From positions 1 through 64,000 of the IMG/VR virus record IMGVR_UViG_3300046003_004989: a stretch of DNA of 64,000 bases; one strand, given 5' to 3'. Shown here piece by piece: positions 30,458-57,311 of the stretch (position 1 is the first letter of the stretch; each line of letters opens with the position of its first letter). Both the position numbers and the translations under genes were made by a program. Under the pieces are notes generated by a model. That model worked only from the letters and a program-made list of their open reading frames with translations. It did no database searches and had not been told where the DNA came from. This DNA comes from a virus.

Positions 30458-30537
30458 TTAATTTATAAGACAAATATAATACAAAAACTCGACAGTAAAA
30501 ACTGCCGAGTCATTTATTTTCAAAAAGTTATTAACAA
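30458..30537 (-). promoter_or_regulatory. class I promoter/terminator cassette; hairpin also closes the internal-protein operon
   Basis: Box 30527-30537, hairpin identical to the one at ~875-897, -7 element 30471-30478. Confidence 0.75.
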
Positions 30538-30852
30538 TTACGAGTTAATCTGTTCATCAGTAACTTCTCCCGTAGGATGTACTTGAGTTCCGTCTTTTTT
30601 CTCTTTTTGTATTTGATTAACCATGTAACCTGCAACTGCAAATTCAATACCTGCCCAGATAGCAATATCCGAAGAAGTCATTGTATCGATTTTCTTTACG
30701 AGAAATTCTATCATTCCCCACTGAGAAATTGCAAATGCTATACCTGATTCGATACGTTTTTTAGAGAAATAAGAATCTTTGGAAGAGTACATTTTCCCTA
30801 TTTCCGATATGAACCATTTAATGTTAGTCCATCCAAAGAAGTAAGTTTTCAT
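30538..30852 (-). CDS. small membrane protein
   Basis: 'FSKKRIESGIAF', two hydrophobic segments. Confidence 0.7.
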   Translation of the reverse strand: MKTYFFGWTNIKWFISEIGKMYSSKDSYFSKKRIESGIAFAISQWGMIEFLVKKIDTMTSSDIAIWAGIEFAVAGYMVNQIQKEKKDGTQVHPTGEVTDEQINS

Positions 30853-30866
30853 TCATATTGTTTATT

Positions 30867-31967
30867 TTAAAGCGATATTGCAAATGCTCCACCTTGAGTT
30901 CCAGCTGCATTTGAGAAGCTAGGTGGTGCAGTTATTTTAATCACGTTTTTATCGTAGTACGACATAAAGTCATTTGGATTGATAATTAGGAAAATTCCTG
31001 ATGAACTCGTCATCGAGAAATAATCGAATTTTTCAATTGCATAATAATAATCGAAAAAGATTTGCAATAGAGCTCTATTATAACCTTTAACGTCGATACT
31101 TCCGTCTTTATTGATACATTTTACAAAGGCTCCAGAATTAGTTGCTACATCTAAGTTGATTAAGTAAGTAGACCATGCATTAACAAGTTCAGAGGAAACA
31201 TAAACTATATCTCTAGGTTTGAATCCACCAGTTTGAGATGCGATAGCTTTTAAATTCTCTTCTAAACCTCTTGCATCTTTCTTAGTAATATTCCAATACT
31301 TATCATCTCCTGAAGTAACAGTGAAGTTTTTCAGTTTGAAAGATTTTGCTATTCTTTCCATTGTAGATTCGAAAGATTTTCTCATAGACTTAGCATCTCC
31401 ATAACCATGTTGTCCAACTAAACGAGCACCTGAACCTTTAACTTCCAGTTCAGATCCACTAACTACTACGTCACCTTTATCTTTTGTGCCTGGTCGTTTT
31501 CCACCATCAAGTATAGTACTCAAATAAACTTCACCAGGACCCATAGGTGGTGAGGTTCTCCATGAGAAATTAAAGAATTCTAATGAAGTCTTCTTATCAA
31601 TACCTAATGTAGAATTAATAACGTATGAATCAGTAACTTTACCGAGGAATGAATCCAGTTTATTTGTACGATTAGCAAAATAATTAGCTAATATGTTCAT
31701 ATCTGCTCCATGCATTAGAGTATCAAATAAGAAATTTGCTTGTTGTAGAGGATAACCTATATCAGTTAGGAAAGCTATGACTGAACTTTTAGAAGCTGAT
31801 GAACCAGCAATCTTAGTAATTTTGTCCTTTGCTTCACTATCATCCATTTTAATATGACCCACAATTTCTTTTCCGATCTCTACAGGAACAGTTGCACCAG
31901 CTTCATTTAGCCAATTTTGGAATTCTTTAAATTTTAACATTTTGTCTTCGTTTGAATTTGTATTCAT
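30867..31967 (-). CDS. leader-tagged (MLKFKEFQNWLNE) putative internal head protein, PD-(D/E)XK-like
   Basis: 'GPGEVYL...KGDV...LEVKG'; start may be the second Met at 31940. Confidence 0.7.
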   Translation of the reverse strand: MNTNSNEDKMLKFKEFQNWLNEAGATVPVEIGKEIVGHIKMDDSEAKDKITKIAGSSASKSSVIAFLTDIGYPLQQANFLFDTLMHGADMNILANYFANRTNKLDSFLGKVTDSYVINSTLGIDKKTSLEFFNFSWRTSPPMGPGEVYLSTILDGGKRPGTKDKGDVVVSGSELEVKGSGARLVGQHGYGDAKSMRKSFESTMERIAKSFKLKNFTVTSGDDKYWNITKKDARGLEENLKAIASQTGGFKPRDIVYVSSELVNAWSTYLINLDVATNSGAFVKCINKDGSIDVKGYNRALLQIFFDYYYAIEKFDYFSMTSSSGIFLIINPNDFMSYYDKNVIKITAPPSFSNAAGTQGGAFAISL

Positions 31968-33152
31968 TTATGCAAATAAATTAGGGAAGTCTTCTTCAAC
32001 TTCGGTTGGTACTGGAACTTTGGAAGAAACGATGTAAATCTTGAATCTTTGTAGAATTGCATCGAATTTATCCTTGTGAATGAAATTCTTATCTGTAAAA
32101 TGTTTCCAGATGTTTTCGAATGTCATTATATCTGACGGTTGTACATTAGGACCGAATGCAATTTCAGTAACCGCTTCTGGTGTATTCGTAACAAACTTAT
32201 CTTGATCGTGTAGAAGTTTAGCTGTTTTAACTAGACCTTTTGCACCCATAAGAGTTTTTGTTACTTCGAAAATACCTTGACCTAAACGTATAACGAATTG
32301 TTTGTATTCTTGAGTCTCACCTTTATCTGTAAGTTTCGTTGCTTCTTTTTTGCATTCAGAAACAACTGACATGAGAAGTACATTTCTGTACATCCCTTTA
32401 TATTTTGATTCTGCTGCTCTAAAATCAGGTGAGTGATACATGAAAGTTGACCAATCTAGTGAAGATGTCATCATCAAATCAACTTGAGCAATTCCATTAG
32501 ATGCTTTACCTGCAATTGGAACGCCAATAGAAACTTGATTAAATCCAACTGATTTTACTACAGTTATGCCGTTCTTCTTCATTGTTGCTTCAACAAAATC
32601 AAGAACATCAGGGATAGAAATTGAATTTACTCCAGCAATACGATCCATTGAACAAGCAATATCCAAGTCACCTGAAAGCTGATCAGCTAGTTTTTTATTG
32701 AATGAACCGATCGGTTTTGCAGAATCTTTATCTAAACCGATAAGTGGAAGAATCTTCTTTACTACATAATCGAATGTACCTACAGCTTCTTCTTGTGTCA
32801 TAGGACGAGATTCAACTGCATTACCACCCTCATTAACAAATTCTACGGATTCTTCAACGAAATTCTCAACTCGTATAATTGATTTCGGATGATCTTTCAT
32901 TGCATCGTGGTCATGAGGAACTAGGAATTCTTCACCGTCTTTCTTTCTAACATTATTCCAAACTCTTTTCAGGATGAATCCTTTCTTAGTATTGCTAATT
33001 ACACGAGAAACTTCTCCTACATTTGGTCCATCGGCAATATAATCACCTGGAGCAACGTCATCCCAATTAACATTTTGAGTTTTGTATTTGTTACTTGTTC
33101 TGTTGAACTTGTTTTCTAGAACAGTATCAACGAATTGTTTGAATTTTAACAT
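31968..33152 (-). CDS. leader-tagged putative internal protein with Pol-beta-type nucleotidyltransferase domain
   Basis: 'IGS-x10-GDLDIA' plus 'QVDLM'; leader MLKFKQFVDTVLE; internal FVNE-GG. Confidence 0.75.
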   Translation of the reverse strand: MLKFKQFVDTVLENKFNRTSNKYKTQNVNWDDVAPGDYIADGPNVGEVSRVISNTKKGFILKRVWNNVRKKDGEEFLVPHDHDAMKDHPKSIIRVENFVEESVEFVNEGGNAVESRPMTQEEAVGTFDYVVKKILPLIGLDKDSAKPIGSFNKKLADQLSGDLDIACSMDRIAGVNSISIPDVLDFVEATMKKNGITVVKSVGFNQVSIGVPIAGKASNGIAQVDLMMTSSLDWSTFMYHSPDFRAAESKYKGMYRNVLLMSVVSECKKEATKLTDKGETQEYKQFVIRLGQGIFEVTKTLMGAKGLVKTAKLLHDQDKFVTNTPEAVTEIAFGPNVQPSDIMTFENIWKHFTDKNFIHKDKFDAILQRFKIYIVSSKVPVPTEVEEDFPNLFA

Positions 33153-33769
33153 TATTTAATTTGGCTTATGTTAGTTACTTTTTTACCTTTTTTCTCTTCA
33201 TCATCAGCATCTGCAAAGAAAAGTAAACCTGCTTTAATTAATCTATTGTAGATTTCGTCTTTAACGATTCCAAAATCAATTGTGTCTGATGAATTTTCCC
33301 AAGTATCAGCAACGTATTCTGGATCGATCCAACCGTAACCTGATTTGATATTCTTAACCATGTCTGCAAAATCCATCTCAAATGCTTTTACTGCTCCTTC
33401 ATTCACAGACTCTTGAATATTCAACGGCTTCACTTTTGGATTTCTAGATCCTCTATAAACTGCGTTAAGCAATTTCTTATAGTCTTCAGGAGAATAGAAT
33501 TCTTCTTCCAATCCACAATAAACGAATTTAACATCCGAAGTGTTCATTGATTTTCCTGCATCTTTTCCGTGAGATATGAGGTTCGATGTTCTTTGTGTTA
33601 CAATTGCTGATCTTCCATCTTTCGTAAAGAAGATATCAATACCTTGACCTTCATATGCCTTAACAAAAGTTAAAGGTAAATCATGGTTCAGGTTATATGC
33701 AAGTTCTTCACCCCAAGTTATTCTTGCTTCATTGACAAAATCTTCGAAGCTTGGTATGTGTTTGTTCAT
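33152..33769 (-). CDS. leader-tagged putative internal head protein
   Basis: MNKHIPSFEDFVNE; internal IQESVNE. Confidence 0.75.
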   Translation of the reverse strand: MNKHIPSFEDFVNEARITWGEELAYNLNHDLPLTFVKAYEGQGIDIFFTKDGRSAIVTQRTSNLISHGKDAGKSMNTSDVKFVYCGLEEEFYSPEDYKKLLNAVYRGSRNPKVKPLNIQESVNEGAVKAFEMDFADMVKNIKSGYGWIDPEYVADTWENSSDTIDFGIVKDEIYNRLIKAGLLFFADADDEEKKGKKVTNISQIK

Positions 33770-33771
33770 TT

Positions 33772-34446
33772 TTATGATTGTTTGTTTAGTATTTCGAATG
33801 TTCTAGGTTGCTCGTCTAAGTATGCTTTAGTATCAACCCAAACTTGTCCTAAATGCTTCTCGTTTTCCTTATCAGTGATATCATATATCGTTAGTAAGGT
33901 TGTGTTAACTGATTGACCTTCCTTACCTTGCATTTTAAGTTGATAATCATTCAACCAATATTGAGAATTATGAATTCTGTATGTAGGTCTGTCTGGTCTA
34001 TTACCATGAGGCTTAACTATGAAATATTGAAAGTGTGCGAACATTGTTCCACCTTCAAAATCCCAGATTCTTTCCATTGCTTCATCCGTTGTTGCAGATG
34101 TTCTAGGCATAAGCTTCTTAAACAGCTTAGGATCGATAGAATTCTTTTTGTCCAAGACTACAGGTTTGAAATTATTAAATGTAGTTTCATTTAGAACTGA
34201 TTCATTTAGAATTTCTTGAACTCTAGAAATTATCTCGTCTTTCATTCCTTTCTTTGTAGCTTGGAATAAAGCTGGACTATATTTCTTAATTGCTTTTTCT
34301 ATTTGTTCATCAGTGAATTTTCCGTCTTCATCAGCACTAGTATGATTTGGCATAGAATAAGCTAGATCTTTTGCAGCTTTTTCTATTCCAGGATGAGATA
34401 TTTTAGCCTCATTAACGAATGATTCGAATGTAGGTATATTTTTCAT
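33772..34446 (-). CDS. leader-tagged putative internal head protein
   Basis: MKNIPTFESFVNE; internal ILNESVLNE. Confidence 0.75.
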   Translation of the reverse strand: MKNIPTFESFVNEAKISHPGIEKAAKDLAYSMPNHTSADEDGKFTDEQIEKAIKKYSPALFQATKKGMKDEIISRVQEILNESVLNETTFNNFKPVVLDKKNSIDPKLFKKLMPRTSATTDEAMERIWDFEGGTMFAHFQYFIVKPHGNRPDRPTYRIHNSQYWLNDYQLKMQGKEGQSVNTTLLTIYDITDKENEKHLGQVWVDTKAYLDEQPRTFEILNKQS

Positions 34447-35252
34447 TATGATAGATTCTTTTTAAGTTCGTTATAGAATGGATGTACAGACTTAGGAGTC
34501 ATTTCGTCAAATGTTTTCTTATCATCTGCAAGGATTGCTTCACGTACTTTAGTACCTGAAGGACCTCCAGTTTGACGATCATCTACATTTTTTAGAATGA
34601 ATGGTTCAGATACAGGTACGTCCGATTTTTCAGAATTGATGTATTTAATTTGTGGTTCGTAAGCTTTCATACGATCAGAACCAGCACCCATTCCGATTGA
34701 TTCATATCCTTTTTCACGTAGGAATTTAACCATTTGTGGAATTACTGTCTTTCTATCGGATGGATATAAGAAGTAGTCTGCCATAAAGCTAAATTCTTTT
34801 GCAACTGCTTTACCAATCTTTTGAAGTAAAGCATCAGGAAAAGGAGACTTATCAGTTTTAGATAGGATTTGAAGTGGAATAACTTTCACACCGAATTGTT
34901 TTGAAGTTCTTTCTAGAGCTGCAATATGTCCGTTATGAAAAGGTTGGAAACGGCCAGGGAAGATACAAACTCTTTCACCGCTAGCAGCTTCAAACATAAA
35001 TAGACCTGCAGTTTCATTAATGGCACCTTTCTGAATAAACATATTCAAATTGATAGTCATTGTGCTACCACCTTTAATAGGTTTTACTGTAAGTATTGCA
35101 CCATTGTTTTTAACGACTTCGTATCTTGATCCTAGATAGAGGACGATTGAACCTACTTCGATAGCTTCAAATTCCTCGACACTCATCTTTTGACCATAAG
35201 CTTTCTTAAAGCCTTCATTAATAAATTGGTCGAATGCAGGTATGTTTTTCAT
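34446..35252 (-). CDS. leader-tagged protein with HIGH-superfamily cytidylyltransferase-like domain
   Basis: MKNIPAFDQFINE; 'FPGRFQPFHNGH', 'GSDR', 'SGTKVR'. Confidence 0.82.
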   Translation of the reverse strand: MKNIPAFDQFINEGFKKAYGQKMSVEEFEAIEVGSIVLYLGSRYEVVKNNGAILTVKPIKGGSTMTINLNMFIQKGAINETAGLFMFEAASGERVCIFPGRFQPFHNGHIAALERTSKQFGVKVIPLQILSKTDKSPFPDALLQKIGKAVAKEFSFMADYFLYPSDRKTVIPQMVKFLREKGYESIGMGAGSDRMKAYEPQIKYINSEKSDVPVSEPFILKNVDDRQTGGPSGTKVREAILADDKKTFDEMTPKSVHPFYNELKKNLS

Positions 35253-35323
35253 ATTACTTTTTATAAGACAAATATAATCAATTTCTGCTTAACAGAAAAA
35301 CTTTTTGTCAATTATTTTTGATT

Positions 35324-35602
35324 TTATTTTACTTCTTCAGTTGAATCTTTGTCCCATTCACCCTTTTTAACAAATCCATGAACTGCAAAGTTAGCACGAG
35401 GTTCACCAGTAGTTTTCACCAATTTATCAATTGCCATATCTTCAGCTTTAGTGTTTTTAACACCTTTAATGTATCGAGCCTTGTATTGCTTTTTGGTTTT
35501 AAAATCTCCAAGAATAAATCCATCATAGAATTTAGTCATATCTCCTTCATTAATTATAGATTCATTAATGAAGTCTTCGAATGTTGGTATGTGTTTATTC
35601 AT
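35324..35602 (-). CDS. leader-tagged putative internal head protein
   Basis: MNKHIPTFEDFINESIINE. Confidence 0.75.
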   Translation of the reverse strand: MNKHIPTFEDFINESIINEGDMTKFYDGFILGDFKTKKQYKARYIKGVKNTKAEDMAIDKLVKTTGEPRANFAVHGFVKKGEWDKDSTEEVK

Positions 35603-35603
35603 T

Positions 35604-36071
35604 TTAGTATACTCTTTTTAGGTTTATTGATTTTTTATGACGATGTCCCATCATTTCATTTGCTGCAAATGATTCAAATCCAAGTTCTTTAATTGCATCA
35701 AGGATTCCATTTTCTCTTGTTATCCACTCTTCTAATGCATTGAACATATCTTCCAATTCAGCTTTTGATGTTTCTTTTGTAATTCCTCTCATAGGCAAGT
35801 GTTTATCACAAACACCTTTCCATTGTTGAACTAGGCTATCGAAGTATTGTTGATGATATAGTGTATAAGCTGCTTGGAATTCTGGATTCAAAACAATAGA
35901 AACTTTATCTTCTTTGGTTTTAGCTTTTGTAGCAGGGAATCTCTTTCCTACCTCATAGCTTTTACTAACCAACCATTTATGTATGTCGGCTGCTTTAATT
36001 TTTGGATCGTCTAATGTTTTGTATTGAACTGATTCATTTACAAAATCTTCAAATGTTGGTATATTTTTCAT
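35604..36071 (-). CDS. leader-tagged putative internal head protein
   Basis: MKNIPTFEDFVNE. Confidence 0.75.
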   Translation of the reverse strand: MKNIPTFEDFVNESVQYKTLDDPKIKAADIHKWLVSKSYEVGKRFPATKAKTKEDKVSIVLNPEFQAAYTLYHQQYFDSLVQQWKGVCDKHLPMRGITKETSKAELEDMFNALEEWITRENGILDAIKELGFESFAANEMMGHRHKKSINLKRVY

Positions 36072-36748
36072 TACTTTAATAATTTTCTAATGTTTTCGAT
36101 AACTATTGATCGATGATTGATAACTGCCTGAGCTTCTTTAGGATGTCTTTGCATAAGTTTCATCGTTTCTCTTGCCCAATTTTCTATTTCACGAGTTAGC
36201 TCAAGAGTTTTTGGCCAAGTAGAATCGTTAACGACATCAAAATCTTGATTACCTTCTAGAGATTCAATTCCAGTTTCTACGCTTTTATCGATGTTCGACC
36301 AATATCCACCTCCTTTAGAACTTATGATAGTTCCAACTGGTACTTTTACTTTTCTAGTTCCTCTGATATTTTTAACTTCGGTGTCTTTATTAGCAATATA
36401 AACATTCCAATATTCTCCACCAACTGATAAAAATCTAGATTCATTCATAGCCGATTCAGTAAGATTACCTCCACTGTCAATTCCAGCACTATGCCAATAA
36501 TCGCCTTTACCATTATAAGTTTTAGTAAATGCTACATATTCTTTTGTTTTAGGATTCCAAAAGTGACTTTCACCATTAGAGGCTGCCATCATTTTCAAAA
36601 TACCGCTTTTAGCATCTTTTATGAGTTTTAATTGAACTGCTCTAGTTAGAGGCTCTCTGACAGTTAATTTATCCGTAGATGCTGCAGAGAGAGCTTCATT
36701 GAGAACAGGCTCATTAACAAAGTCTTCAAATTGTGGTATATTTTTCAT
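36071..36748 (-). CDS. leader-tagged putative internal head protein
   Basis: MKNIPQFEDFVNEPVLNE; internal LTESAMNE. Confidence 0.75.
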   Translation of the reverse strand: MKNIPQFEDFVNEPVLNEALSAASTDKLTVREPLTRAVQLKLIKDAKSGILKMMAASNGESHFWNPKTKEYVAFTKTYNGKGDYWHSAGIDSGGNLTESAMNESRFLSVGGEYWNVYIANKDTEVKNIRGTRKVKVPVGTIISSKGGGYWSNIDKSVETGIESLEGNQDFDVVNDSTWPKTLELTREIENWARETMKLMQRHPKEAQAVINHRSIVIENIRKLLK

Positions 36749-36754
36749 AATTGA

Positions 36755-37621
36755 TTAGTTGCTCCAACTAGCTGCTACGCTTAATCGAAGATTATATTTT
36801 TTTGCGAATTTTTCTAATTGGTCCATGATTCTTCCTTGGAAAGTTGAGAATTTGCTATACTCTTTAGAAGATGTAGTATTTCCTCCATATTCATTTTCAT
36901 GACGATACTCTCTAGGTTCATCAATTCTCATACGAACTTCTCGATTTTTCAAATCTAAATAAGGAGATCTTACTTCAATTCTTAATTTACTAGCATAAGT
37001 TCTCATTTCATTGTATAGAGGATCTATCTTAGCAGAAAGTTTTCTGAAGTCGTCTTCAATACGCTTTCTATCATTAGCGAGTTTTTGAGCTTGTCTAGGA
37101 TTGAAATATGCACCCATTTTCTTTTCATATTCATCGAAAATATGTACAATATCTTGTAAAACTCCAGTATGATTAGAGATTGATTTGTAACCTCCATAAA
37201 CTACATTTCCAGTTTTAAGAATATCACCATCTGTGTCTCTTATACCGTCGAAATAATGACCGAATGAATATTGAGGCTTACTCGTTGAATTACCTGAAGA
37301 GTATTGGAAAGGTCCGTCTGCATAAGTAGATCTACTCATACCTTTCACAGCAATAACTACTACGAGATTTCCACCATAATTCCATTCAGAACGATAAACA
37401 TATACGTCTAGTGGAACTTTGAGATTTTTGCTTAGATATTTAACAGCTTCAATTCCTTTACCGAAGTTAGTATTAGTTTCGTTACCTTCAGGAGTTCCTT
37501 TAATAGCTTTTAAGAAATTAGCTGGAGACATCGGCTCCATTGAATTGAAAAGAGGTTTTTTGTCTTTAGTATAGAGCATATCTTCATTAATAAAGTCCTC
37601 AAATATTGGAATGTTTATCAT
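36755..37621 (-). CDS. leader-tagged putative internal head protein
   Basis: MINIPIFEDFINE. Confidence 0.75.
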   Translation of the reverse strand: MINIPIFEDFINEDMLYTKDKKPLFNSMEPMSPANFLKAIKGTPEGNETNTNFGKGIEAVKYLSKNLKVPLDVYVYRSEWNYGGNLVVVIAVKGMSRSTYADGPFQYSSGNSTSKPQYSFGHYFDGIRDTDGDILKTGNVVYGGYKSISNHTGVLQDIVHIFDEYEKKMGAYFNPRQAQKLANDRKRIEDDFRKLSAKIDPLYNEMRTYASKLRIEVRSPYLDLKNREVRMRIDEPREYRHENEYGGNTTSSKEYSKFSTFQGRIMDQLEKFAKKYNLRLSVAASWSN

Positions 37622-37658
37622 TATCTTCTTTTACTTTAGTTATTTATTCGAGATCAAA

Positions 37659-38417
37659 TTAGTCCCAAACTTCGGTGTATGTTCCACCAACAATCATAAC
37701 TCCTTGTTTCCAATCGAAATCAACTCTATCTTTTCTAAAGAAAAAATGATTTTTGATTATTTCTTCGGTTTGTTCTTCAGTCTTACCAAAAGCTACATTA
37801 AGATCTTTAATTACATAAGCTTTATCGTAAGATTTTGTGATATGAGTTGATGCTTGACTTCCATAACCCTGATCTCTTGTATTGATCGTTTTATAGTCGG
37901 CTTTTGATGATTTCCAGAATTGTATGATTCTATTAATCATATCATCATTAAGGGGTTGTTTCTGTGAGAATTTGATCCAATCTTTTACTTGCTTTGCGAT
38001 ATTAGCTTTCTTCGGATTTGATAGATCGAAAGCACGATAATTGTTAATGTAATCGTTTCCTGATACGCCAATTCCACCTCTAGGTTCTCTAGGCTGCTTA
38101 TCAGAAATTACTTCGGTGATCGTGATTGAAGCTTTTATCCACATATTACCAACATTACAGTTTTGTAAAATTTTTGCACGTTTAGCATCTATCCAAGACC
38201 AATCGTTAGTCTCATATTTATTAGATATGTGAATATGTCCGTTACCGTAGTCATAATACTTATCTTCTTTTCCACCTCTTTGATATGCTACATCTTTAAA
38301 GTTAGAAGTTAGTGCAGTTTGTAATTGTCTATCTAGAGCAGCATCTAGAGGATTGATTGTTCCTTCATTTAGAGTTGATTCATTAATGAAGTCTTCGAAT
38401 TGTGGGATATTTTTCAT
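37659..38417 (-). CDS. leader-tagged putative internal head protein
   Basis: MKNIPQFEDFINESTLNE. Confidence 0.75.
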   Translation of the reverse strand: MKNIPQFEDFINESTLNEGTINPLDAALDRQLQTALTSNFKDVAYQRGGKEDKYYDYGNGHIHISNKYETNDWSWIDAKRAKILQNCNVGNMWIKASITITEVISDKQPREPRGGIGVSGNDYINNYRAFDLSNPKKANIAKQVKDWIKFSQKQPLNDDMINRIIQFWKSSKADYKTINTRDQGYGSQASTHITKSYDKAYVIKDLNVAFGKTEEQTEEIIKNHFFFRKDRVDFDWKQGVMIVGGTYTEVWD

Positions 38418-38818
38418 TATTTGTAATTTTTATTTAAGTACCAATCAATATCAGCCTTATCATAACCTAAAAGCTCACCGATTTTTTTGCTTTCCTGTTT
38501 AGTAGCCTCATATGATAGAAACCCACCATATTTATTAGCAATCTTTGCTAATTCTTTGGCTTTTTTCTCGGCACCTTTATTAAAATAAATATAAGCTTCG
38601 TATGGATTTTCAGGTAATTTGATTGTTCCTAAATTATTAGTCTTAATTAAATTCCAAAATTCATCTTTATTTATATCGACCGAAGTTTTGATAGTAATAA
38701 ATCCCACATCTCGCTTTCCGTCGATAACAGTTTGTATACCACTTTTATCTCGGTGAGCTTCTTCCGCTTTGATACTTTCAGATACGAATTCGTCGAATGT
38801 AGGAATGTGTATGTTCAT
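38417..38818 (-). CDS. leader-tagged putative internal head protein
   Basis: MNIHIPTFDEFVSE. Confidence 0.75.
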   Translation of the reverse strand: MNIHIPTFDEFVSESIKAEEAHRDKSGIQTVIDGKRDVGFITIKTSVDINKDEFWNLIKTNNLGTIKLPENPYEAYIYFNKGAEKKAKELAKIANKYGGFLSYEATKQESKKIGELLGYDKADIDWYLNKNYK

Positions 38819-38827
38819 TTCACCTTT

Positions 38828-39517
38828 TTATATTTTTCCAGCTTTTACTCTATCTCTAGAAACACTGTTGATGTATTTTAGCTCATCTGCAGTCAATTTA
38901 GGAGAGATTAATTTTTTCCATTGTCCTTCTTGTTTAGCTTTAGGTAACTGCAAAAATTCAATAACGTCTTGATCGTTTTTTAGCTTATCAAGTATTGATT
39001 GAACTGCTTTATCTCTCTTATGTTCTCTCCACCAATCTTTTAAATCTTCAATTGGATGGAAGTCTACTCTATTTGCTAACATTGCAATTTGACCACCTAC
39101 TGCAGCTGCTTGTAGCATTAGTATCACTGTCATTGCGTCTTCATTAATAGGTTCAACTGATTCTCTAACGATATCGAAAAATTTCTTACGATCTGCAGGC
39201 CAAAATTGTTTTTGTCCTGGAATCTCGTCTAAGCATCTAAATGACATAGGCATAGAAGATCCTAAATCATTTTCATGTTCATCTTGATATGAAGTTACCC
39301 ATTTTCTAACTTTGTCATTTGCGTCTTTAACGACTACTCTAACAGCAAAACCTTTTGGGTGAGATTTTAACATTTGATAATCTATTGCATCAATTTTTAA
39401 TTCTCTTTCTAGGTCATCAATGAATTTAGCTGCAACTTTATTAGCTTTATCAGCAGCTGAGGCTTCGTTAAGAATAGATTCATTAACGAATTCTTCGAAT
39501 TGGGGAATATTTTTCAT
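38828..39517 (-). CDS. leader-tagged putative internal head protein
   Basis: MKNIPQFEEFVNESILNE; internal IVRESVEPINE. Confidence 0.75.
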   Translation of the reverse strand: MKNIPQFEEFVNESILNEASAADKANKVAAKFIDDLERELKIDAIDYQMLKSHPKGFAVRVVVKDANDKVRKWVTSYQDEHENDLGSSMPMSFRCLDEIPGQKQFWPADRKKFFDIVRESVEPINEDAMTVILMLQAAAVGGQIAMLANRVDFHPIEDLKDWWREHKRDKAVQSILDKLKNDQDVIEFLQLPKAKQEGQWKKLISPKLTADELKYINSVSRDRVKAGKI

Positions 39518-39777
39518 TTATGTTTAATGATTTTTATTTGTAAGTCTTTAGTCCCTTTGATTACTCGATGCATAGCACCTTTAGGGATGAATATCTCTTT
39601 ATTGAGCGATATAGGCAATTCATTATCGAATTGGAATTGCCAATCCGTTTTCTTAATTGCTTTTATCGTTCTGTCTTCTTCGTCCCAATGCCATTTTAAC
39701 TCCTCTTCTTCTGTTGATTGAAGGAAAGTTCGAATGTATGTGCATTCGTCTGATTGATATTCACAGTATGCTTTCAT
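39514..39777 (-). CDS. cupin-like small protein (no leader)
   Basis: 'KWHWDEEDR...FIPKGAMHRVIKG'. Confidence 0.7.
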   Translation of the reverse strand: MKAYCEYQSDECTYIRTFLQSTEEEELKWHWDEEDRTIKAIKKTDWQFQFDNELPISLNKEIFIPKGAMHRVIKGTKDLQIKIIKHK

Positions 39778-39778
39778 A

Positions 39779-40324
39779 TTACCAAGGTAGATCGGACTGA
39801 AGTCCTAATTGTTTATTGAAGAGTGAAGGTGCATAGCAAGACCAAAACTTTGCAGTTAGCGGATCTTGTGATTTTTTTAAGTCACATTGTTGTCTTGCCC
39901 AGTAAGAAGCTGCTGCTCCTGGATTGTCGTTTTTAATAACCATCTTAGGTTGACCCCAACCGATTTCAACGGCAATAATATTTCCGTCGTCGTCTTTCTT
40001 ACCACTATCATGATAGACTTTAAATTTTCTTTCTCCACCTCTAGTAGGTTCATCGAGTTTTACATCGATCCATTTACCATCAGCGGTTTCAAATTTCGCC
40101 TTTTCTCCGACTTTAAGATTCTTAGACATCCAAGCTTCTTTATCATTGAGAATAACGTTACCCTTATCCCACCATTCTTTAGTTTCTTCGAATAGTTTTT
40201 GATATGCTTCTGATCCAATACGGAATACAGATTCTGTAATGCCTAATCCACGATCTAAGTGATAAAGGAATGCTTCTGATGCATTCTCTCTCAAGTATTG
40301 ATCGAATTCTGGTATATTTTTCAT
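39779..40324 (-). CDS. leader-tagged putative internal protein with conserved Cys-containing C-terminal domain
   Basis: MKNIPEFDQYLRE; 'KFKVY...SYWARQQC...KFWSC...PW'. Confidence 0.75.
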   Translation of the reverse strand: MKNIPEFDQYLRENASEAFLYHLDRGLGITESVFRIGSEAYQKLFEETKEWWDKGNVILNDKEAWMSKNLKVGEKAKFETADGKWIDVKLDEPTRGGERKFKVYHDSGKKDDDGNIIAVEIGWGQPKMVIKNDNPGAAASYWARQQCDLKKSQDPLTAKFWSCYAPSLFNKQLGLQSDLPW

Positions 40325-40325
40325 T

Positions 40326-40847
40326 TTACTTTTCTGATTTTTCTATATGTTGATCAGCTTTCTTTTTATCGCTTGCTGATAATTCATTGTAAAGTTTTTG
40401 TACAAATACATCATGATTTTTACCGCTATCGTAAGCTCTTGGATCGTCTGCATACATATAGTATTTATCAGACATCTCGTAATGACGTAACCATTTATCG
40501 AAAGGTTTGTACATTTTATCTTCTATTTGCTTACGGATTTGAGAATCTTGCATTTTCTTTTTATTCAAATACCATTCCCAAGAACCTCTAAACTGTCCTG
40601 TCTTAAAAGCGTGAATTATATCACCATCTTTTAATTTGATTTCGAATTTAATGCCTTTCGCATCATCACTAACGTCTTCGATAGATTTGATTTGCTTTTC
40701 AGCTTCTTCCCATTTAACAGGAATCAAATGCTTAACTGAAATAGTAACATCCATCTTAAGGTCTTCGGGAGTTCCCCAACCTTTTTTGAAGTCTGAGTAA
40801 GTTTGATACTCATTTACGAATGATTCGAATGTAGGTATATTTTTCAT
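40326..40847 (-). CDS. leader-tagged putative internal head protein
   Basis: MKNIPTFESFVNE. Confidence 0.75.
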   Translation of the reverse strand: MKNIPTFESFVNEYQTYSDFKKGWGTPEDLKMDVTISVKHLIPVKWEEAEKQIKSIEDVSDDAKGIKFEIKLKDGDIIHAFKTGQFRGSWEWYLNKKKMQDSQIRKQIEDKMYKPFDKWLRHYEMSDKYYMYADDPRAYDSGKNHDVFVQKLYNELSASDKKKADQHIEKSEK

Positions 40848-40899
40848 ATTGTATGTTTATTTAGCAAATATAATCATTTTCTGATTAACAGAAAAACTT

Positions 40900-41337
40900 T
40901 TAGCTACATGTTTTTCTAATAGTTTCAACTTGTGAACCACTAAAGCCCATTTCTCTTAGAGCTTTTTCGCATTCAAGACCAACGTTGATTCTATCTTTTT
41001 CAACTGGTAAACCTCTAGAATAACCAACTGATTCTGAATATCCGTAATTTGAGATGAAAGCTTTACATCTTCTGATCATTTTAATTGGATCTTTGATAGC
41101 TTTTAATTGTGCTCTTGTCTTACCTGCATAAGGAGCTCTATTACCATAGAAAGAACTACCCATCCATTGCAAATCTTCTGCACGGTCTAGGTCTTTTTTA
41201 TCTGGCATGATTTTTGATATCTCTTCATCTGTCATAGATGATGGAATGACTGCTGATTCGTTGATAGCGTCATCTTGGTCAATAGATTCATTGATAGCGC
41301 TTCTATTCAAGAATTCGTCAAATGTAGTTAATTTCAT
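40900..41337 (-). CDS. leader-tagged putative internal head protein
   Basis: MKLTTFDEFLNRSAINESIDQDDAINES (duplicated AINES). Confidence 0.72.
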   Translation of the reverse strand: MKLTTFDEFLNRSAINESIDQDDAINESAVIPSSMTDEEISKIMPDKKDLDRAEDLQWMGSSFYGNRAPYAGKTRAQLKAIKDPIKMIRRCKAFISNYGYSESVGYSRGLPVEKDRINVGLECEKALREMGFSGSQVETIRKTCS

Positions 41338-41348
41338 TTCTTTATATT

Positions 41349-41645
41349 TTATTTTTCTATAACGTCTATTACGGAATCTTCAGATCCTTCGTAGTCTACA
41401 TCGAAACCTGATGAATCTGCTAGATCAATAAACTGATCAAACTCTCTCCTAGGAAGAGAGTAATATGAATCTCCTTTAATATCTTCAAAATCTAAATTAC
41501 GAGCAAACTTATCATTTAAGATTTGATCTAATTTATCATCATCTACACTAAATAAAACAACATCACTGTGTTTATATGTAGTTTTCATTCTCGCTTCATT
41601 AACAGATTCATTTACGAACTCATCAAAAGTTGGTATGTAATTCAT
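41349..41645 (-). CDS. leader-tagged putative internal head protein
   Basis: MNYIPTFDEFVNESVNE. Confidence 0.75.
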   Translation of the reverse strand: MNYIPTFDEFVNESVNEARMKTTYKHSDVVLFSVDDDKLDQILNDKFARNLDFEDIKGDSYYSLPRREFDQFIDLADSSGFDVDYEGSEDSVIDVIEK

Positions 41646-41659
41646 TTTTATGTTTGATT

Positions 41660-42109
41660 TTATTTTGCAGAATATGCTATATGTTTAAAGAATCTTTGTT
41701 GTACAAAACTTTGTATGCTAGATATTGCAAACATCGATGTAAAATTACCTTTAAATTTTTGTTTGTTTATATCCAATGAGCATGTAAGATAACCTTTAAC
41801 TACGTTACCTTCAGTTATCATTACCAGTGCCTGATCAGAAGATATCGATATTTGTCCGATATTCCACTTATTTTTATTGTCTTTGATTTTTTTCCAAAGT
41901 TCGTTCATTGGATTTTGGACTTGAACGTCAATTGAACCGGAAACAAAATTATAACTCATATTATTTGTTGCAGATTGAACCTCTTCAGCTGCATCTAAAA
42001 TAACTTCCCAAATCATTTGAGCAGTTTCTTCAGTTAATCTAACGTCTTTTATTGCTTCATTTATCGTAGATTCATTTATGAATTCTTCAAAACTCGGTAT
42101 GTAATTCAT
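41660..42109 (-). CDS. leader-tagged putative internal head protein
   Basis: Start moved to ATG 42109: MNYIPSFEEFINESTINE. Confidence 0.75.
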   Translation of the reverse strand: MNYIPSFEEFINESTINEAIKDVRLTEETAQMIWEVILDAAEEVQSATNNMSYNFVSGSIDVQVQNPMNELWKKIKDNKNKWNIGQISISSDQALVMITEGNVVKGYLTCSLDINKQKFKGNFTSMFAISSIQSFVQQRFFKHIAYSAK

Positions 42110-42210
42110 TTCTTTCTTTTTATTTTTATATCCTCTAAAAGGATTGTGATTGCAAATATTGCCAATATAGTGAATAATACTATTGGTGGACAAGTTGGGT
42201 CCTGTGACAT
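42106..42210 (-). CDS. 34-aa single-TM peptide
   Basis: MSQDPTCPPIVLFTILAIFAITILLEDIKIKRKK; ATGA overlap with the next gene; missed by ORF track. Confidence 0.5.
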   Translation of the reverse strand: MSQDPTCPPIVLFTILAIFAITILLEDIKIKRKK

Positions 42211-42222
42211 TTTTCTATCTAC

Positions 42223-43518
42223 TTATTTTTTATAAGCAAGGATAGATCGGATTTGATGCAATGGTGCAAAAATTCCAGTGTACTTGTAAAGTTTACCTTT
42301 GAATAAGAATGTAATACCTTCAGTCGGTACAATTGATTCTAATCCACCAGCAGCAGAAACACGAGTTAGCTCATGTTCCATCTTTTCTACATCAACTTCA
42401 TCTCCATTTGTACGGATCTTAGAAATTGTAGAATCGATTTCTTTACGCATATCTTCAGCGGCTTTAGTAGGATTTGCAGAAAGGAAAGATGAAATATTTT
42501 TCATCATTTCTGTTCCAATTTCGAGGAAGATAGATTCAAGTGGTGCATATACTGCACGTTTCCATTTCTTAGCCATTTTCTTTTCAAGATCAGTGAACCA
42601 AGTAGCATTATCACCTAAGTCTTTCTTAATCATAGGAACTGAGTAAGACTTATCGATATCTGCTATTCTTCTAGCAAGACCATCAAGAGATTGTTCAGGA
42701 AGTGTGATTTTTGCTGAAGCAGCTTCAGCTTTAATGATATTCTTACCCATACCTAGTGCATAATCACCTACAGTAGAATTCTGAGAACAACCACTTTCTT
42801 TCATGATTGATGCCAATTTAGATTTGTAGTATGATGCTCTAGCTTTTGTATTAGGGAGTGGTTTTGATGCGATGTCTTGAGGACCTCTAACAAAGAATGT
42901 TTCTTGTGCTGCTGCATTTGCATCTGCAACTATTTTACCGAGATCTCTACCAGCTTGTTTATCTTCATCAATTACTTTTCCTGCTTCGTCATATTCGAGT
43001 ACTCCATGGAATACTAACATATTAAGTCCGTAAGGAACAGTGTTTTGAGTTACAGGTGTAATGATTTCAATAGATGCGAATTTCTTACCTTCTGCGAAGT
43101 ATTTTTCTTTGTCTTTAGGTGAAAGTGCTCCGATTGAAGCAGTTAGATCTTTCATTGCTGCATTATAAACAATTTCTATATCACCTCTACCAGCGAAAAG
43201 ATCTGCAACACCTTGAATTGTCATTGCATTTTCACCAGCATTCTTTAAATGAGAACCGTTTCTAGCAGCTATTAAAGCACCATTTTTCCAAGAGATGGAA
43301 AGTTGTTGACCGTCAGTTTTTTCTTGTACGAAGTTTTCAGGACCGAAAGCTCCATTAACTGTAGTCATTAGCATTTCTTCCAAATCCAAAAAGGTCAACC
43401 CAATATCCTCGAAAGGATGTGTGAGATGACCGTAAGCACCACCTTCATTTAAAGGTTCTACTTTAATGGATTCATTAAGATATGCTACAAATTCTGTAAA
43501 TTTGAGTAATTTTCGCAT
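42223..43518 (-). CDS. leader-tagged protein with ligase-like KxDG motif
   Basis: MRKLLKFTEFVAYLNE...LNE-GGAYGHLTHPFED; 'QEKTDGQQL', 'EGITF', 'YKYTG.FAP'. Confidence 0.75.
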   Translation of the reverse strand: MRKLLKFTEFVAYLNESIKVEPLNEGGAYGHLTHPFEDIGLTFLDLEEMLMTTVNGAFGPENFVQEKTDGQQLSISWKNGALIAARNGSHLKNAGENAMTIQGVADLFAGRGDIEIVYNAAMKDLTASIGALSPKDKEKYFAEGKKFASIEIITPVTQNTVPYGLNMLVFHGVLEYDEAGKVIDEDKQAGRDLGKIVADANAAAQETFFVRGPQDIASKPLPNTKARASYYKSKLASIMKESGCSQNSTVGDYALGMGKNIIKAEAASAKITLPEQSLDGLARRIADIDKSYSVPMIKKDLGDNATWFTDLEKKMAKKWKRAVYAPLESIFLEIGTEMMKNISSFLSANPTKAAEDMRKEIDSTISKIRTNGDEVDVEKMEHELTRVSAAGGLESIVPTEGITFLFKGKLYKYTGIFAPLHQIRSILAYKK

Positions 43519-43574
43519 TGATTGTGAGTCTTTTATTTCATTTTATATATCTTCGAAGAAGACATAAGACTCAC

Positions 43575-43805: not shown

Positions 43806-43992
43806 ATTTGATGTATTTTTTGATTTCTATTTTAACTTGATTGTTTGTTTTTCGATCAATCAGAACGAGTAGAATTACATCATCTTTGGAGTCATCATGA
43901 GAATAAACTTCCCACTCAGGGGAAGTTATCTCTTTATCATTGATCCAAGAAGCAACCGTAATGTCTTCTCTTCTATTCAATTTTAGTTGCAT
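43771..43992 (-). CDS. hypothetical protein
   Basis: ORF track. Confidence 0.6.
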   Translation of the reverse strand: MQLKLNRREDITVASWINDKEITSPEWEVYSHDDSKDDVILLVLIDRKTNNQVKIEIKKYIKYEDIKENQPEN

Positions 43993-45230
43993 TATTTAGC
44001 GAAAAATTTCTTATTGTTTGTTAATCTCTCGATTTCCCATTCAGGTACGATACCACCCTTTTCTACTAATTTCCAAAGCTTTTTGAAAGTTTCTTCAGAT
44101 TCTTGTCTACGACCTGACCACCAACAAGAAATTGAATGTAGATCGTATATTTTCCAAGCATAGATTGCTCCATCTATGAATAGTGCAGATGTTGGCATTG
44201 GATTCTTACCAGCGAATTTCATAGCATGTGAGCTATAGATATATGCAGTGTCGAACTCCTTAATTGAATGATAGTGTAGAATGATAGGAATTAAGTGTTC
44301 TGTTCTATGAACGTTAGCTTTACCACATTTACGATAATCTTCTAGGATTTCATTAACTGGATAATTAAGAGCACCTTTCAAAGAAGCAACCATTAACAAC
44401 GAATAATAAACTTCTTCCCAGAATCCATCATTAATCATATTAGATCTTTTCTCGTACCACTCTAATGCTTTTGCTTGATTTTCTGGGGTTCCTGCATCTC
44501 GATAAGATTGAGCTAAATAGAATACCCAACGTGGATCTTTCTTCGGATCATTTTCTACATAATCAAGTAGAATCTTAGCATGACCTTCGTATTTTTGTTG
44601 TTGAGTTTCAGAAGTCCAAGAGTTACCATCTGGAGTTACTAAAGTCGTTAGACCTTCGGCTTCACCTACATGAAAACCGTTTGGATCGTCATTTACAAGT
44701 ACTTCGTGTACTGGACCGTACCACCTCCAAGGTGATGTCGTGCTAAAGAATTGCATACGGAAGTAATTCTGACCTCCATAAGAAACTTTAATATTTGCCC
44801 CTGTAAATTGTGTAAGATTTGCTTTAAACATTTGAAGATTGAATCGAGGATCGATAATCAATTGCTCATCGGCATCAATCCAGAAACCGAAGTCTGCTTT
44901 ACCTTCAACAGCTTTTAAAGCTGTATTACGAGCATCTTCGAAGTTTTTCCAAGGATGATCGATTACTTCTCCTGGAATATTTTTCTCTTCAAAGAATTTT
45001 CTGATAATGTCTTGAGTTCCATCAGTAGATCCTGTATCGATAACTACATAATAATCGAGAATAGGATAAACAGAGTTTAACATACGCTCTATTACTTTTG
45101 CTTCGTTCTTAACGATAATGGAAAGTGATACAGTAGCTGGTTTGCCTGTTGGCATTTTTGCTACTTGAGGTCTTTGTACCTGAGGCCTTTGATTTTGCGA
45201 GGGCTTACGCTTTTTGTTATTCTTCGCCAT
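43992..45230 (-). CDS. GT2 glycosyltransferase with TPR-like C-terminus
   Basis: 'IIVKNE', 'IDTGSTDGT', 'WIDADE', 'GPVHE', 'FYLAQSYRD'. Confidence 0.88.
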   Translation of the reverse strand: MAKNNKKRKPSQNQRPQVQRPQVAKMPTGKPATVSLSIIVKNEAKVIERMLNSVYPILDYYVVIDTGSTDGTQDIIRKFFEEKNIPGEVIDHPWKNFEDARNTALKAVEGKADFGFWIDADEQLIIDPRFNLQMFKANLTQFTGANIKVSYGGQNYFRMQFFSTTSPWRWYGPVHEVLVNDDPNGFHVGEAEGLTTLVTPDGNSWTSETQQQKYEGHAKILLDYVENDPKKDPRWVFYLAQSYRDAGTPENQAKALEWYEKRSNMINDGFWEEVYYSLLMVASLKGALNYPVNEILEDYRKCGKANVHRTEHLIPIILHYHSIKEFDTAYIYSSHAMKFAGKNPMPTSALFIDGAIYAWKIYDLHSISCWWSGRRQESEETFKKLWKLVEKGGIVPEWEIERLTNNKKFFAK

Positions 45231-45526: not shown

Positions 45527-46000
45527 TTATTTGATCCATCCATAATCGTCGATAGATCCATCATGCTTTAACTCTTGATATCTTGTGCCCTTATCGAAAA
45601 GAGTACCGAAATGTTTACCTTTATTAAAGAAGTAAATCTCTTCACCTCTACTAATATGTTCATAACGATCAAGCATATCTCGGAGTAAATTACTTTTCAA
45701 ACCTACTAGGATTTTAGTTTTACTTCCACTAAAATCTTTTACATCTTTCAATGTAACTGATTCATTTAGAAATTGTTCAAATGATTCAGTGAGTTTATTT
45801 AACTCAGCTTTATCATATGTACCGAAATCTTGATGAGGTAGAGTAGTTTTAGTTTGAACTTTTTTCACAGGATGTGTGAGTTCAACTCCTTCATAAGGAT
45901 CGGCTTTTACACCTCTCTTCTCCCAATAATCGAAGAAGTTCTTCCATGTTCCGTGATAATAGCGAATCTTTTCTAGATCGGAATCTTGTCCATGAGTCAT
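45527..46000 (-). CDS. hypothetical protein with internal leader-like motif (SFEQFLNES)
   Basis: Track ORF 45527..46069; start uncertain, ATG 46000 preferred. Confidence 0.65.
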   Translation of the reverse strand: MTHGQDSDLEKIRYYHGTWKNFFDYWEKRGVKADPYEGVELTHPVKKVQTKTTLPHQDFGTYDKAELNKLTESFEQFLNESVTLKDVKDFSGSKTKILVGLKSNLLRDMLDRYEHISRGEEIYFFNKGKHFGTLFDKGTRYQELKHDGSIDDYGWIK

Positions 46001-46001
46001 A

Positions 46002-46229
46002 TCAACTGTTTCTTGACCTGACCCCTTTGGGTTCTTTTCTGGTATTGGCATAATTTGAAATAACTTCACCTTTAAGATGAATGTTTAATTTTTTTATTCC
46101 TGCAAAATCTTCTTCGGTTTCCTTGATAATATCAAGTACTCTGACAAAAACCCCAGGTTCAACTTCTAAGATATCTCCAATTTGAAGAGAAGAATCAATA
46201 TCTTCACCTTCTTTAAAAAGTCGTATCAC
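46002..46229 (-). CDS. hypothetical protein
   Basis: GTG-start ORF. Confidence 0.5.
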   Translation of the reverse strand: MIRLFKEGEDIDSSLQIGDILEVEPGVFVRVLDIIKETEEDFAGIKKLNIHLKGEVISNYANTRKEPKGVRSRNS

Positions 46230-53391: not shown

Positions 53392-54041
53392 TATTGTACG
53401 TCTTTACGATCTTCTTCAGTGAAAGAAAGAGCATCAGCTACTGCAGCAGATGAGATATTAACATCCATCTTAGCTGAACGATAGTTAGAAATTTTAGATG
53501 AGAAGTTCATGTACATTTTTGAATTAGAAGCATCATTTGCATTGAAAGTCATTGAATTTCCAGCATTGATACCCATAGCACCACCTGCTTTAATTGCATC
53601 TTGATTAGCTGCTAAGAATAAGAAATTCCATCCATCTTTCTTTTTGTCTTCAATCAATTTGAAAACTTTTGCTTGATCGTATTCTTTACTTGCATTTTCA
53701 TAACCATCGGTGATGATTACGAATACTACATCATTTTTAGTTTTTACATCTTTTATCGTTTGACCTACTGCATCGTAAAGAGCAGTTGTTGCACGAGGTA
53801 CAAATGTTTCACCTAAAATAAGGTCTTTTGCTTCATTGATTGGAAGCTCTTTATAATCAACTTGATATTGATTATCGAATTGCACTAAAGTGATATTTGC
53901 TTCACCTTCTGCAGCTTTCTGTTCTTTAACGAAAGTATTGAATCCGTCTACGGTAGACTGACCAATAGAATCCATAGAACCAGAACGGTCTAAAACAACG
54001 ATAATATCAGTTGCTTTAGGAGTTACTTTTTTCTTTGCCAT
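53391..54041 (-). CDS. vWA domain protein
   Basis: 'VLDRSGSM', 'TALYDAVG', 'ITDGYENAS', 'FLAANQDA'. Confidence 0.9.
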   Translation of the reverse strand: MAKKKVTPKATDIIVVLDRSGSMDSIGQSTVDGFNTFVKEQKAAEGEANITLVQFDNQYQVDYKELPINEAKDLILGETFVPRATTALYDAVGQTIKDVKTKNDVVFVIITDGYENASKEYDQAKVFKLIEDKKKDGWNFLFLAANQDAIKAGGAMGINAGNSMTFNANDASNSKMYMNFSSKISNYRSAKMDVNISSAAVADALSFTEEDRKDVQ

Positions 54042-56785: not shown

Positions 56786-57076
56786 TTATTTTGAAAGGCT
56801 TTCTAGTTCTTTGTCTATTTGAGATTGACGATTAACATCTAGAATTTTACGATCAGTTGATTGTATCATTCTTTTCTCAGACTTAAGACCTTCAATTTGT
56901 AGGTCTTTCTTAGTGACAGTTGTAGATTGGAGCGTATCAACTTTTTCTGTAAGCTTATCAATTCGCTTATTGATACTTTTTGTGTCACTGCTGCAAGTTC
57001 GTAGGAATAGAATAACTAGCAAAGATAGAACTATTAGGTTGAAATACCTTCCAATAAATTCGTTAAATTTATTCAT
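56786..57076 (-). CDS. membrane-anchored/lipoprotein-like coiled-coil protein
   Basis: Hydrophobic stretch ending LFLRTC, then coiled coil. Confidence 0.65.
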   Translation of the reverse strand: MNKFNEFIGRYFNLIVLSLLVILFLRTCSSDTKSINKRIDKLTEKVDTLQSTTVTKKDLQIEGLKSEKRMIQSTDRKILDVNRQSQIDKELESLSK

Positions 57077-57311
57077 TTTCTTTCTTTTTAGGTTTTATGA
57101 TCTTGTTAGGTCTCGGTGTTTGCTGTGAGATTTTAGCATTATAATAATCATCGGTATAACATTCGCAAGGAAGTTTAGATTGTCCACATTTAGGACATGC
57201 TAGATTATCATCAGGGCTTGCATTCGGTTTAGGGACTTCAACCTCTTCGATATCCTTTTTGTTTGGTTTTTTACCTTCTACTAAAAACTCAATAAATTTC
57301 TTAAAAGCCAT
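57069..57311 (-). CDS. small Cys (CxxC-x6-CxC) protein with leader-like N-terminus
   Basis: MAFKKFIEFLVE-G; GATAAATAA upstream at ~57332-57340. Confidence 0.65.
   Translation of the reverse strand: MAFKKFIEFLVEGKKPNKKDIEEVEVPKPNASPDDNLACPKCGQSKLPCECYTDDYYNAKISQQTPRPNKIIKPKKKENE

Follow-up and report, generated by a model that had tools for sequence, protein, structure and literature searches.

Phage proteins that are injected with the DNA act before phage gene expression, and those of T4 include a restriction inhibitor and a host-modifying enzyme. Such proteins are normally found only through virion proteomics of cultured phages. The internal proteins found in T-even phages form a diverse set with only a capsid-targeting sequence (CTS) in common (PMC3012670, PMC9026906). 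Mutagenesis of the T4 CTS assigned targeting to residues 4 and 7 and processing to residues 8 and 10, and the protease gp21, which cleaves after L/I-X-E, reduces the scaffold to many fragments (PMC9026906). Here we describe a 12.6-kb array of 19 open reading frames (ORFs) on the minus strand, at positions 30867-43518 of a window that comprises the first 64 kb of the 144,480-bp IMG/VR record IMGVR_UViG_3300046003_004989 (CheckV completeness 53%). Judged from sequence, the short N-terminal leader that these proteins share is probably a T4-type capsid-targeting propeptide, and the array a late-promoter-headed operon of packaged, cleaved and injected cargo.

The leader is present on 18 of the 19 ORFs, as a preliminary description of this stretch had reported. 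Fourteen ORFs begin with the strict form, M-x(2,3)-I-P-x-F-[ED]-x-[FY]-[VIL]-x-E (starts at 33769, 34446, 35252, 35602, 36071, 36748, 37621, 38417, 38818, 39517, 40324, 40847, 41645 and 42109), and four with an L-K-F or T-T-F variant (starts at 31940/31967, 33152, 41337 and 43518). For c01, Met10 (31940) is the most likely start, being the position at which 23 orthologues begin, and the ORF at 41660-42193 has a corrected start at the ATG at 42109. Nearly all genes of the record lie on the minus strand. From high to low coordinates, the genes of this unit are:

42223..43518, minus strand: c19, 431 aa; variant leader, then a second L-N-E; very conserved body with invariant K67, D69 and G70
41660..42109, minus strand: c18, 149 aa; strict leader, second I-N-E in tandem
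41349..41645, minus strand: c17, 98 aa; strict leader, second V-N-E
40900..41337, minus strand: c16, 145 aa; T-T-F variant leader, two I-N-E
40326..40847, minus strand: c15, 173 aa; strict leader; orthologues bear other leader flavours
39779..40324, minus strand: c14, 181 aa; strict leader ending Y-L-R-E; 66-68% orthologues in relatives
39514..39777, minus strand: leaderless gene, 87 aa; overlaps the start of the following gene by 4 nt
38828..39517, minus strand: c12, 229 aa; strict leader, second L-N-E
38417..38818, minus strand: c11, 133 aa; strict leader ending V-S-E
37659..38417, minus strand: c10, 252 aa; strict leader, second L-N-E
36755..37621, minus strand: c09, 288 aa; strict leader; 67% leader-bearing orthologues in two relatives
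36071..36748, minus strand: c08, 225 aa; strict leader, second L-N-E; its halves are separate in relatives
35604..36071, minus strand: c07, 155 aa; strict leader
35324..35602, minus strand: c06, 92 aa; strict leader, second I-N-E; body internal to 470-570-aa ORFs in relatives
34446..35252, minus strand: c05, 268 aa; leader followed by a 65-aa module, an internal I-N-E and an HxGH (cytidylyltransferase-like) nucleotidyltransferase
33772..34446, minus strand: c04, 224 aa; strict leader
33152..33769, minus strand: c03, 205 aa; strict leader; an internal V-N-E precedes the C-terminal half
31968..33152, minus strand: c02, 394 aa; L-K-F variant leader
30867..31940, minus strand: c01, 357 aa from Met10; L-K-F variant leader
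30538..30852, minus strand: last gene of the unit, 104 aa, without leader

Downstream of the leader, the bodies were described as unrelated to each other, and this is borne out by pairwise BLASTP within the array (all E > 0.05). A tandem array with shared N-termini could also arise from diverged paralogues of a single family in which only the N-terminus is still recognisable. We give this possibility almost no weight, since proteins that span 92-431 aa lack any pairwise similarity and have different Pfam folds or fold leads. In addition, the same body occurs with different leaders across phages, and leaders are fused directly to modules that are internal elsewhere.

The near-invariant positions of the leader are F, F/Y, V/I/L and E (15/15 for each), with the same spacing as the functional residues of the T4 CTS. 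The T4 ipII and ipIII sequences that we read open with the 10-residue CTS, and the leader was aligned to it by eye over 7 residues. Similar to IPI, IPII and IPIII of T4 (and Alt), the leader is a short propeptide at the extreme N-terminus with two aromatics three apart, followed by I/V/L-x-E. The likeness extends to a gp21-type S77 protease, a Gp23/Gp20 head, unrelated bodies, and cargo sets that vary between related phages (PMC3012670, PMC9026906). Unlike the 10-residue T4 CTS, the leader is 13 residues long and has a conserved I-P turn ahead of its core, and its cut site is fixed as [ILV]-N-E and often doubled. Multi-module cargo split by internal sites and a protease fused to the scaffold also set this system apart from T4. 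None of the bodies is homologous to a T4 internal protein, and the system is known here from genes alone.

The source phage is an uncultured freshwater huge phage with a T4-type head. Its head module encodes a Gp23 capsid protein (PF07068), a Gp20-type portal protein (PF07230, Portal_T4) and the gp21-type protease on which the preliminary description depended, a Peptidase_S77 (PF03420) matched at 46-48 bits (cut-off 27) and encoded alongside the other two. By its capsid protein, the phage is closest to an uncultured 462-kb phage (56% identity), followed by Lak phages (35-39%) and Tenacibaculum jumbo phages (32-33%). The same DNA is seen again in lake-water metagenomes from at least 15 studies, and the array is spanned in full, at about 99-100% identity, by contigs from other lakes. 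A megablast search of GenBank phages with the array gave no match. The protease gene is:

103909-105813, outside the window: protease-scaffold ORF, 634 aa, with the S77 domain at its start, between the portal and capsid genes

In this product the S77 protease is joined to a long, scaffold-like region at the C-terminal side, a fusion shared with Tenacibaculum phage PTm1, where the annotation reads scaffolding protein and protease. At their ends the leaders have [ILV]-x-E, in most cases [ILV]-N-E, which is the putative cleavage motif. The protease-scaffold protein contains [ILV]-N-E ten times, more densely than any other protein of the genome (Poisson 6e-6, against a background of 2.5 per 1000 aa), and its PTm1 homologue contains it nine times. 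The N-terminus of the capsid protein likewise opens with L-I-N-E and I-V-E sites. In about a third of leaders, a second [ILV]-N-E follows 4-5 residues after the first, and these doubled sites resemble the redundant cut sites of phiKZ propeptides (PMC9026906).

The inner-body and ejection proteins of phiKZ, 201phi2-1 and SPN3US are a second parallel, in that giant phages package many proteins and a diverged gp21 homologue cuts after the Glu of a three-residue motif, with redundant sites in the propeptides (PMC9026906). However, the phiKZ-type proteins have no common leader consensus, belong partly to paralogous families and are cut at an S/A-X-E motif, and their head module and lineage are different. 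The phage examined here falls outside the phiKZ-like class, with its chimallivirus-type genomes: its head genes are of T4 type, P3 is I/L/V, and its capsid relatives are Lak, Tenacibaculum and uncultured huge phages.

The most detailed view of the predicted cleavage boundary comes from c19, a family for which 854 homologues were found. Among 116 orthologues, the N-terminal extension is variable in sequence and in length (14-81 aa) and ends in h-x-E right before an invariant body that begins G-G-A-Y-G-H. The P1 residue is E in 113 of the 116, and P3 is L/I/V/M in 115. Conservation that begins at P1' is expected of a cleaved propeptide, and the orthologues of c01 have the same h-x-E boundary pattern. 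In the AlphaFold2 (AF2) model of c19, leader residues 7-17 are helical and residues 21-31 disordered; the c01 model (predicted local distance difference test, pLDDT, 88.9) also has a leader helix, and in both models the short helix is followed by a low-confidence linker. A predicted complex of the protease-scaffold protein with c06 scored 0.00 in a run made without controls and is not evidence either way.

We propose that the leader would form a short N-terminal helix, through whose two aromatics the protein docks on the scaffold core as the prohead assembles. The scaffold-fused gp21-type protease would then cut after the Glu of [ILV]-N-E, often with a second site 4-5 residues on, and the mature protein, freed inside the head, would leave with the DNA at infection. 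The T4-like targeting of many cargoes that had been claimed has several independent computational lines of support (the S77 protease, the CTS match and the boundary); presence in the virion, docking, cleavage, packaging, injection and an anti-defence or takeover function are what we infer.

Many targeting roles are served by short amphipathic N-terminal helices such as the leader helix of the AF2 models, and the capsid localisation of the leader proteins is itself only deduced. The leader could instead direct proteins to a site other than the capsid, or bind a common partner (a host chaperone, a protease adaptor or a phage regulator) through which they share control of stability or timing. We consider this unlikely, given that the leader is without hydrophobic signal-peptide character, that its final tripeptide is a mark of the scaffold protein and that it matches the T4 CTS at functionally mapped residues. 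Among the contigs examined, moreover, the leader is found only in phages with this head type, and the array stands behind a motif common to structural genes.

When a leader hidden Markov model (HMM) was run over six frames of the 144-kb genome, a check that the preliminary description had proposed, all matches above 9.6 bits were ORF starts on the coding strand. The only two internal matches are weaker (9.1 and 8.8 bits, at 45784 and 86358). A looser core, consisting of an aromatic, two residues, an aromatic, a hydrophobic residue, one or two further residues and Glu, starts no later than residue 13 in 30 of 212 proteins, versus 1.5 expected from its internal rate. Including variants, about 33 leader genes are present in this 144-kb fragment, roughly half of the genome, and 18 of them are in one operon, compared with a handful in T4. 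An expansion from three cargoes to about 20 had been suggested earlier; the expansion holds, and the number was too low. Seven of the further leader genes belong to the operon that immediately precedes the portal gene. Two previously noted loci outside the array both proved sound; the first fits the loose core, and the internal leader-like copy of the second is conserved in the orthologue of a 294-kb relative:

57069..57311, minus strand: extra leader gene, 80 aa, with a variant leader
45527..46069, minus strand: gene with a leader-like segment near residue 100 rather than at the N-terminus

In the second gene, a long prodomain followed by a cut site is one possible reading of this arrangement.

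At the DNA level, the gene starts carry a 41-nt repeat in 14 copies, with 66-80% identity to a reference copy. The region is A/T-rich, there is no upstream Shine-Dalgarno sequence, and genes are shuffled at these junctions, so that the conserved stretch might work as nucleic acid, either as a shared translation-initiation region for a host that does not use Shine-Dalgarno sequences or as a recombination cassette, with the peptide incidental. However, the codons of the fixed I, P, F, V and E differ synonymously between leaders and the DNA upstream is unrelated, which indicates selection at the peptide level. The repeat is missing from the starts of other genes in this genome, and the conserved h-x-E boundary in orthologues is a feature of protein. 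Together with the modest identity of the copies, these observations make a function as nucleic acid very improbable. The repeat noted in the preliminary description is real, and on this comparison it is a coding by-product, too degenerate for the dedicated recombination site that had been envisaged.

Several elements that may control transcription of the unit were located:

43543..43551, minus strand: motif GATATATAA of a putative late promoter, 33 nt upstream of the array's first gene, c19
40856..40915, minus strand: internal host-type promoter cassette with TTATATTTG (TAnnTTTG) and an upstream hairpin box, before c15
35260..35319, minus strand: second internal host-type promoter cassette with TTATATTTG, before c05
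30486..30511, minus strand: strong terminator-like hairpin of intrinsic type, 11 pairs, closing the unit

The motif GATATATAA occurs ten times on the coding strand of the genome and not at all on the other. Of the ten copies, nine lie between genes, in most cases with a start codon 24-42 nt downstream; the genes behind them include those for protease-scaffold, capsid and sheath and others that look late, and the portal gene has a variant with one changed base in front of it. The copy before c19 is the single one in the window, and in the 294-kb relative the motif is likewise placed before the orthologous first gene. The 12.6-kb block would form one operon with a late promoter at its head and two internal host-type promoters. 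We also observed a perfect 9-bp inverted repeat, GTGAGTCTT ... AAGACTCAC (43500-43570), whose 32-nt loop holds the putative late promoter; the equivalent in the relative is weak at best.

The second motif, TTATATTTG, is a -7 element of the TAnnTTTG type, with 20 copies on the coding strand and one on the other, 25-37 nt before start codons. Its sites (30462-30521, 35260-35319, 40856-40915 and 17 elsewhere in the genome) often follow a hairpin with a T run, and they read as terminator-plus-promoter cassettes that may punctuate the genome. As is generally known of Bacteroidota, promoters there contain elements of this kind; their presence before many genes, together with the lack of a Shine-Dalgarno sequence before any, suggests a Bacteroidota host. 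A sigma-70 scan of the block gave fewer sites than in shuffled sequences and carries no information for a host of this type. Six array genes are matched by short contigs from two metatranscriptome libraries; we did not use these contigs for the timing of expression because DNA carry-over is possible and they show no starts.

To get a wider view of the leader, we searched IMG/VR with a degenerate pattern, which matched 58 contig stretches; about 66 of 72 matches were at ORF starts, 2-5 residues past the start Met. Five near-complete phage contigs of 207-425 kb have 6-15 leader cores each, versus 0-1 in a reversed control, and in four of the five the cores all lie on one strand. In 596 Gb of cellular genomes the pattern was otherwise found only inside unrelated proteins, and the true N-terminal cases were only on a phage contig filed as a metagenome-assembled genome (MAG). 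This contig, JBBACR010000001.1 (425,361 bp), is a huge-phage contig with leader genes as in IMGVR_UViG_3300035208_004923 and is filed in GenBank under a Candidatus Pacearchaeota MAG, probably by a binning error. A tblastn search of GenBank phages with a widespread 169-aa cargo protein found no cultured phage that encodes it. The strict pattern is absent from LR756500.1, the closest capsid relative, and from Tenacibaculum phage PTm1, and no clear leader was seen among the PTm1 N-termini read in one 17-kb locus. LR756500.1 has another leader flavour, of the type M-K-F-x-K-x-Y-E-E-F-L-N-E, which is nearer to the T4 CTS and suggests that CTS-like leaders may form a continuum across T4-type heads.

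Comparison with the 294-kb relative provides an evolutionary perspective on the array. The flanks are 60-92% identical and the syntenic array is again headed by c19, with 22 leader genes, only about eight of which have a counterpart here. One and the same body is found with different leader flavours between phages, for example for c02, the C-terminal half of c03, c14 and c15; the c02 orthologue on another contig has a strict leader. The transferase of c05 directly follows the leader in three relatives and is located behind extra modules here and in a fourth. Similarly, the C-terminal half of c03 is directly behind a leader in other phages, and this half and the c06 body are elsewhere internal modules of 470-570-aa ORFs, behind [VI]-N-E. 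By these comparisons the leader is a portable module, and the array is clearly seen as a hot spot at which putative cargo modules are gained, lost, fused and split at leader/cut-site junctions. The cassette exchange that had been anticipated is therefore upheld as a pattern of turnover and module shuffling between relatives.

Where bodies can be read, they look like nucleotide or nucleic-acid enzymes. The clearest case within the array is c05, whose Pfam (PF01467) and NCBIfam matches identify an HxGH nucleotidyltransferase. In Microcystis phage Mel-JY01 (PP395634.1 11243-13162), this transferase is fused with a c19-family domain in a 639-aa protein, and on several IMG/VR contigs a c19-family gene adjoins a 615-623-aa protein with the transferase at its C-terminus. 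This Rosetta-stone link suggests that the two families may form a two-enzyme pathway. For c19 itself, the K-x-D-G motif is invariant and the sequence had no match in PDB. The best Foldseek match to c19 is T4 RNA ligase 2 (E = 1, weak), and VIA gave Z scores of 6.3 and 5.9, also weak, to a tRNA ligase adenylyltransferase domain; a ligase-like fold is a weak lead from the model. The C-terminal module of c02 is likely a Pol-beta-type nucleotidyltransferase, a lead from predicted structures that matched NTP_transf_2 and nucleotidyltransferase clusters in the Atlas at TM 0.78-0.81. In c01, E146, D166, E175 and K177 are invariant (an E/D/E-x-K set), and the protein is possibly a PD-(D/E)XK nuclease of the restriction-enzyme fold; this is a weak lead, with HinP1I as best Foldseek match (E = 0.7) and VIA Z scores of 4.5 or less against restriction enzymes. 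One further enzyme-like body was found elsewhere in the record:

97441-98934, outside the window: RimK ATP-grasp (Pfam match) behind a leader

The other bodies are orphans in family searches (Pfam, NCBIfam). No internal-protein family was matched by the cargo bodies in Pfam, or in PHROGs by the four bodies scanned (c01, c02, c05 and c19). The mechanism does not call for homology to T4 IPI, IPII or IPIII, given that the T-even internal proteins are mutually unrelated (PMC3012670). We found no support for an array rich in anti-defence effectors; the few readable bodies are enzyme-like, and most bodies are orphans.

With most bodies lacking a readable function, the leader could be a prohead-core propeptide on proteins most of which serve in assembly or in the core, or are broken down inside the head, instead of reaching the host as effectors. 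Among the substrates of the T4 protease are core proteins without an effector role (gp22, gp67 and gp68; PMC9026906), and the seven leader genes of the head operon are beside the portal gene. We see a small chance that this is correct. Enzyme-like bodies (HxGH, RimK ATP-grasp, the Pol-beta lead and the nuclease-like set) have no evident role as packing material, and the fast turnover of the set between relatives suits conflict genes better than assembly parts.

Several observations weigh against a capsid-targeting propeptide on injected cargo, which we nonetheless favour. The similarity of the leader to the T4 CTS spans only about 7 residues, and convergence is possible. One array gene has no leader. 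The scaffold protein of LR756500.1, in which the leader is of another flavour, has only two [ILV]-N-E, and this motif is not enriched in cargo bodies overall (1.77 versus 1.75 per 1000 aa). Searches of GenBank phages found no cultured relative bearing the leader. The two host-type cassettes inside the array are probably early, which implies that part of the array may also be transcribed early.

Encapsulin cargo-loading peptides are likewise short portable tags that bring unrelated cargo into an HK97-fold shell. The encapsulin tag, however, is usually C-terminal, is uncleaved and binds the shell protein directly, and its cargo is not delivered to another cell. The logic of a shared tag on internal proteins is already known from T4; new here are the scale, the longer leader with a fixed [ILV]-N-E, the modular polyprotein-like cargo and the clade of uncultured freshwater huge phages in which it occurs. 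The leader strings were not found in the searchable literature. As read from its genes, the packaged cargo of the source phage is probably apparent from the genome.

Our confidence falls a little short of even for a broader proposal. It holds that a clade of uncultured freshwater huge phages loads dozens of proteins per virion by means of one genome-readable tag, including nucleotide or nucleic-acid enzymes and polyproteins split by the head protease, and that this is the largest known injected arsenal, with cargo swapped at tag junctions. If so, sequence alone would be enough to list the effectors of uncultured phages by their tag. Should the tag work as in T4, it would supply a packaged-proteome rule for abundant uncultured lake phages, under which the candidates number about 33 in this fragment, 22 in the array of the relative and hundreds across public contigs. 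The turnover hot spot would then be a place to seek new counter-defence or takeover functions, and the leader a natural cargo-loading tag with a defined protease site and a possible packaging tool.

The single leaderless gene of the array (39514-39777) is kept inside the array in three relatives, where it is leaderless too, and has a conserved W-H-W-D-E motif; a helper or regulator specific to the array is a possible role. A glycosyltransferase and a 423-aa thymidylate-synthase-family protein (43992-45230, 54041-55312 and neighbours) are encoded just upstream of the array, with sugar-nucleotide enzymes further on, and these genes may form a DNA hypermodification module.

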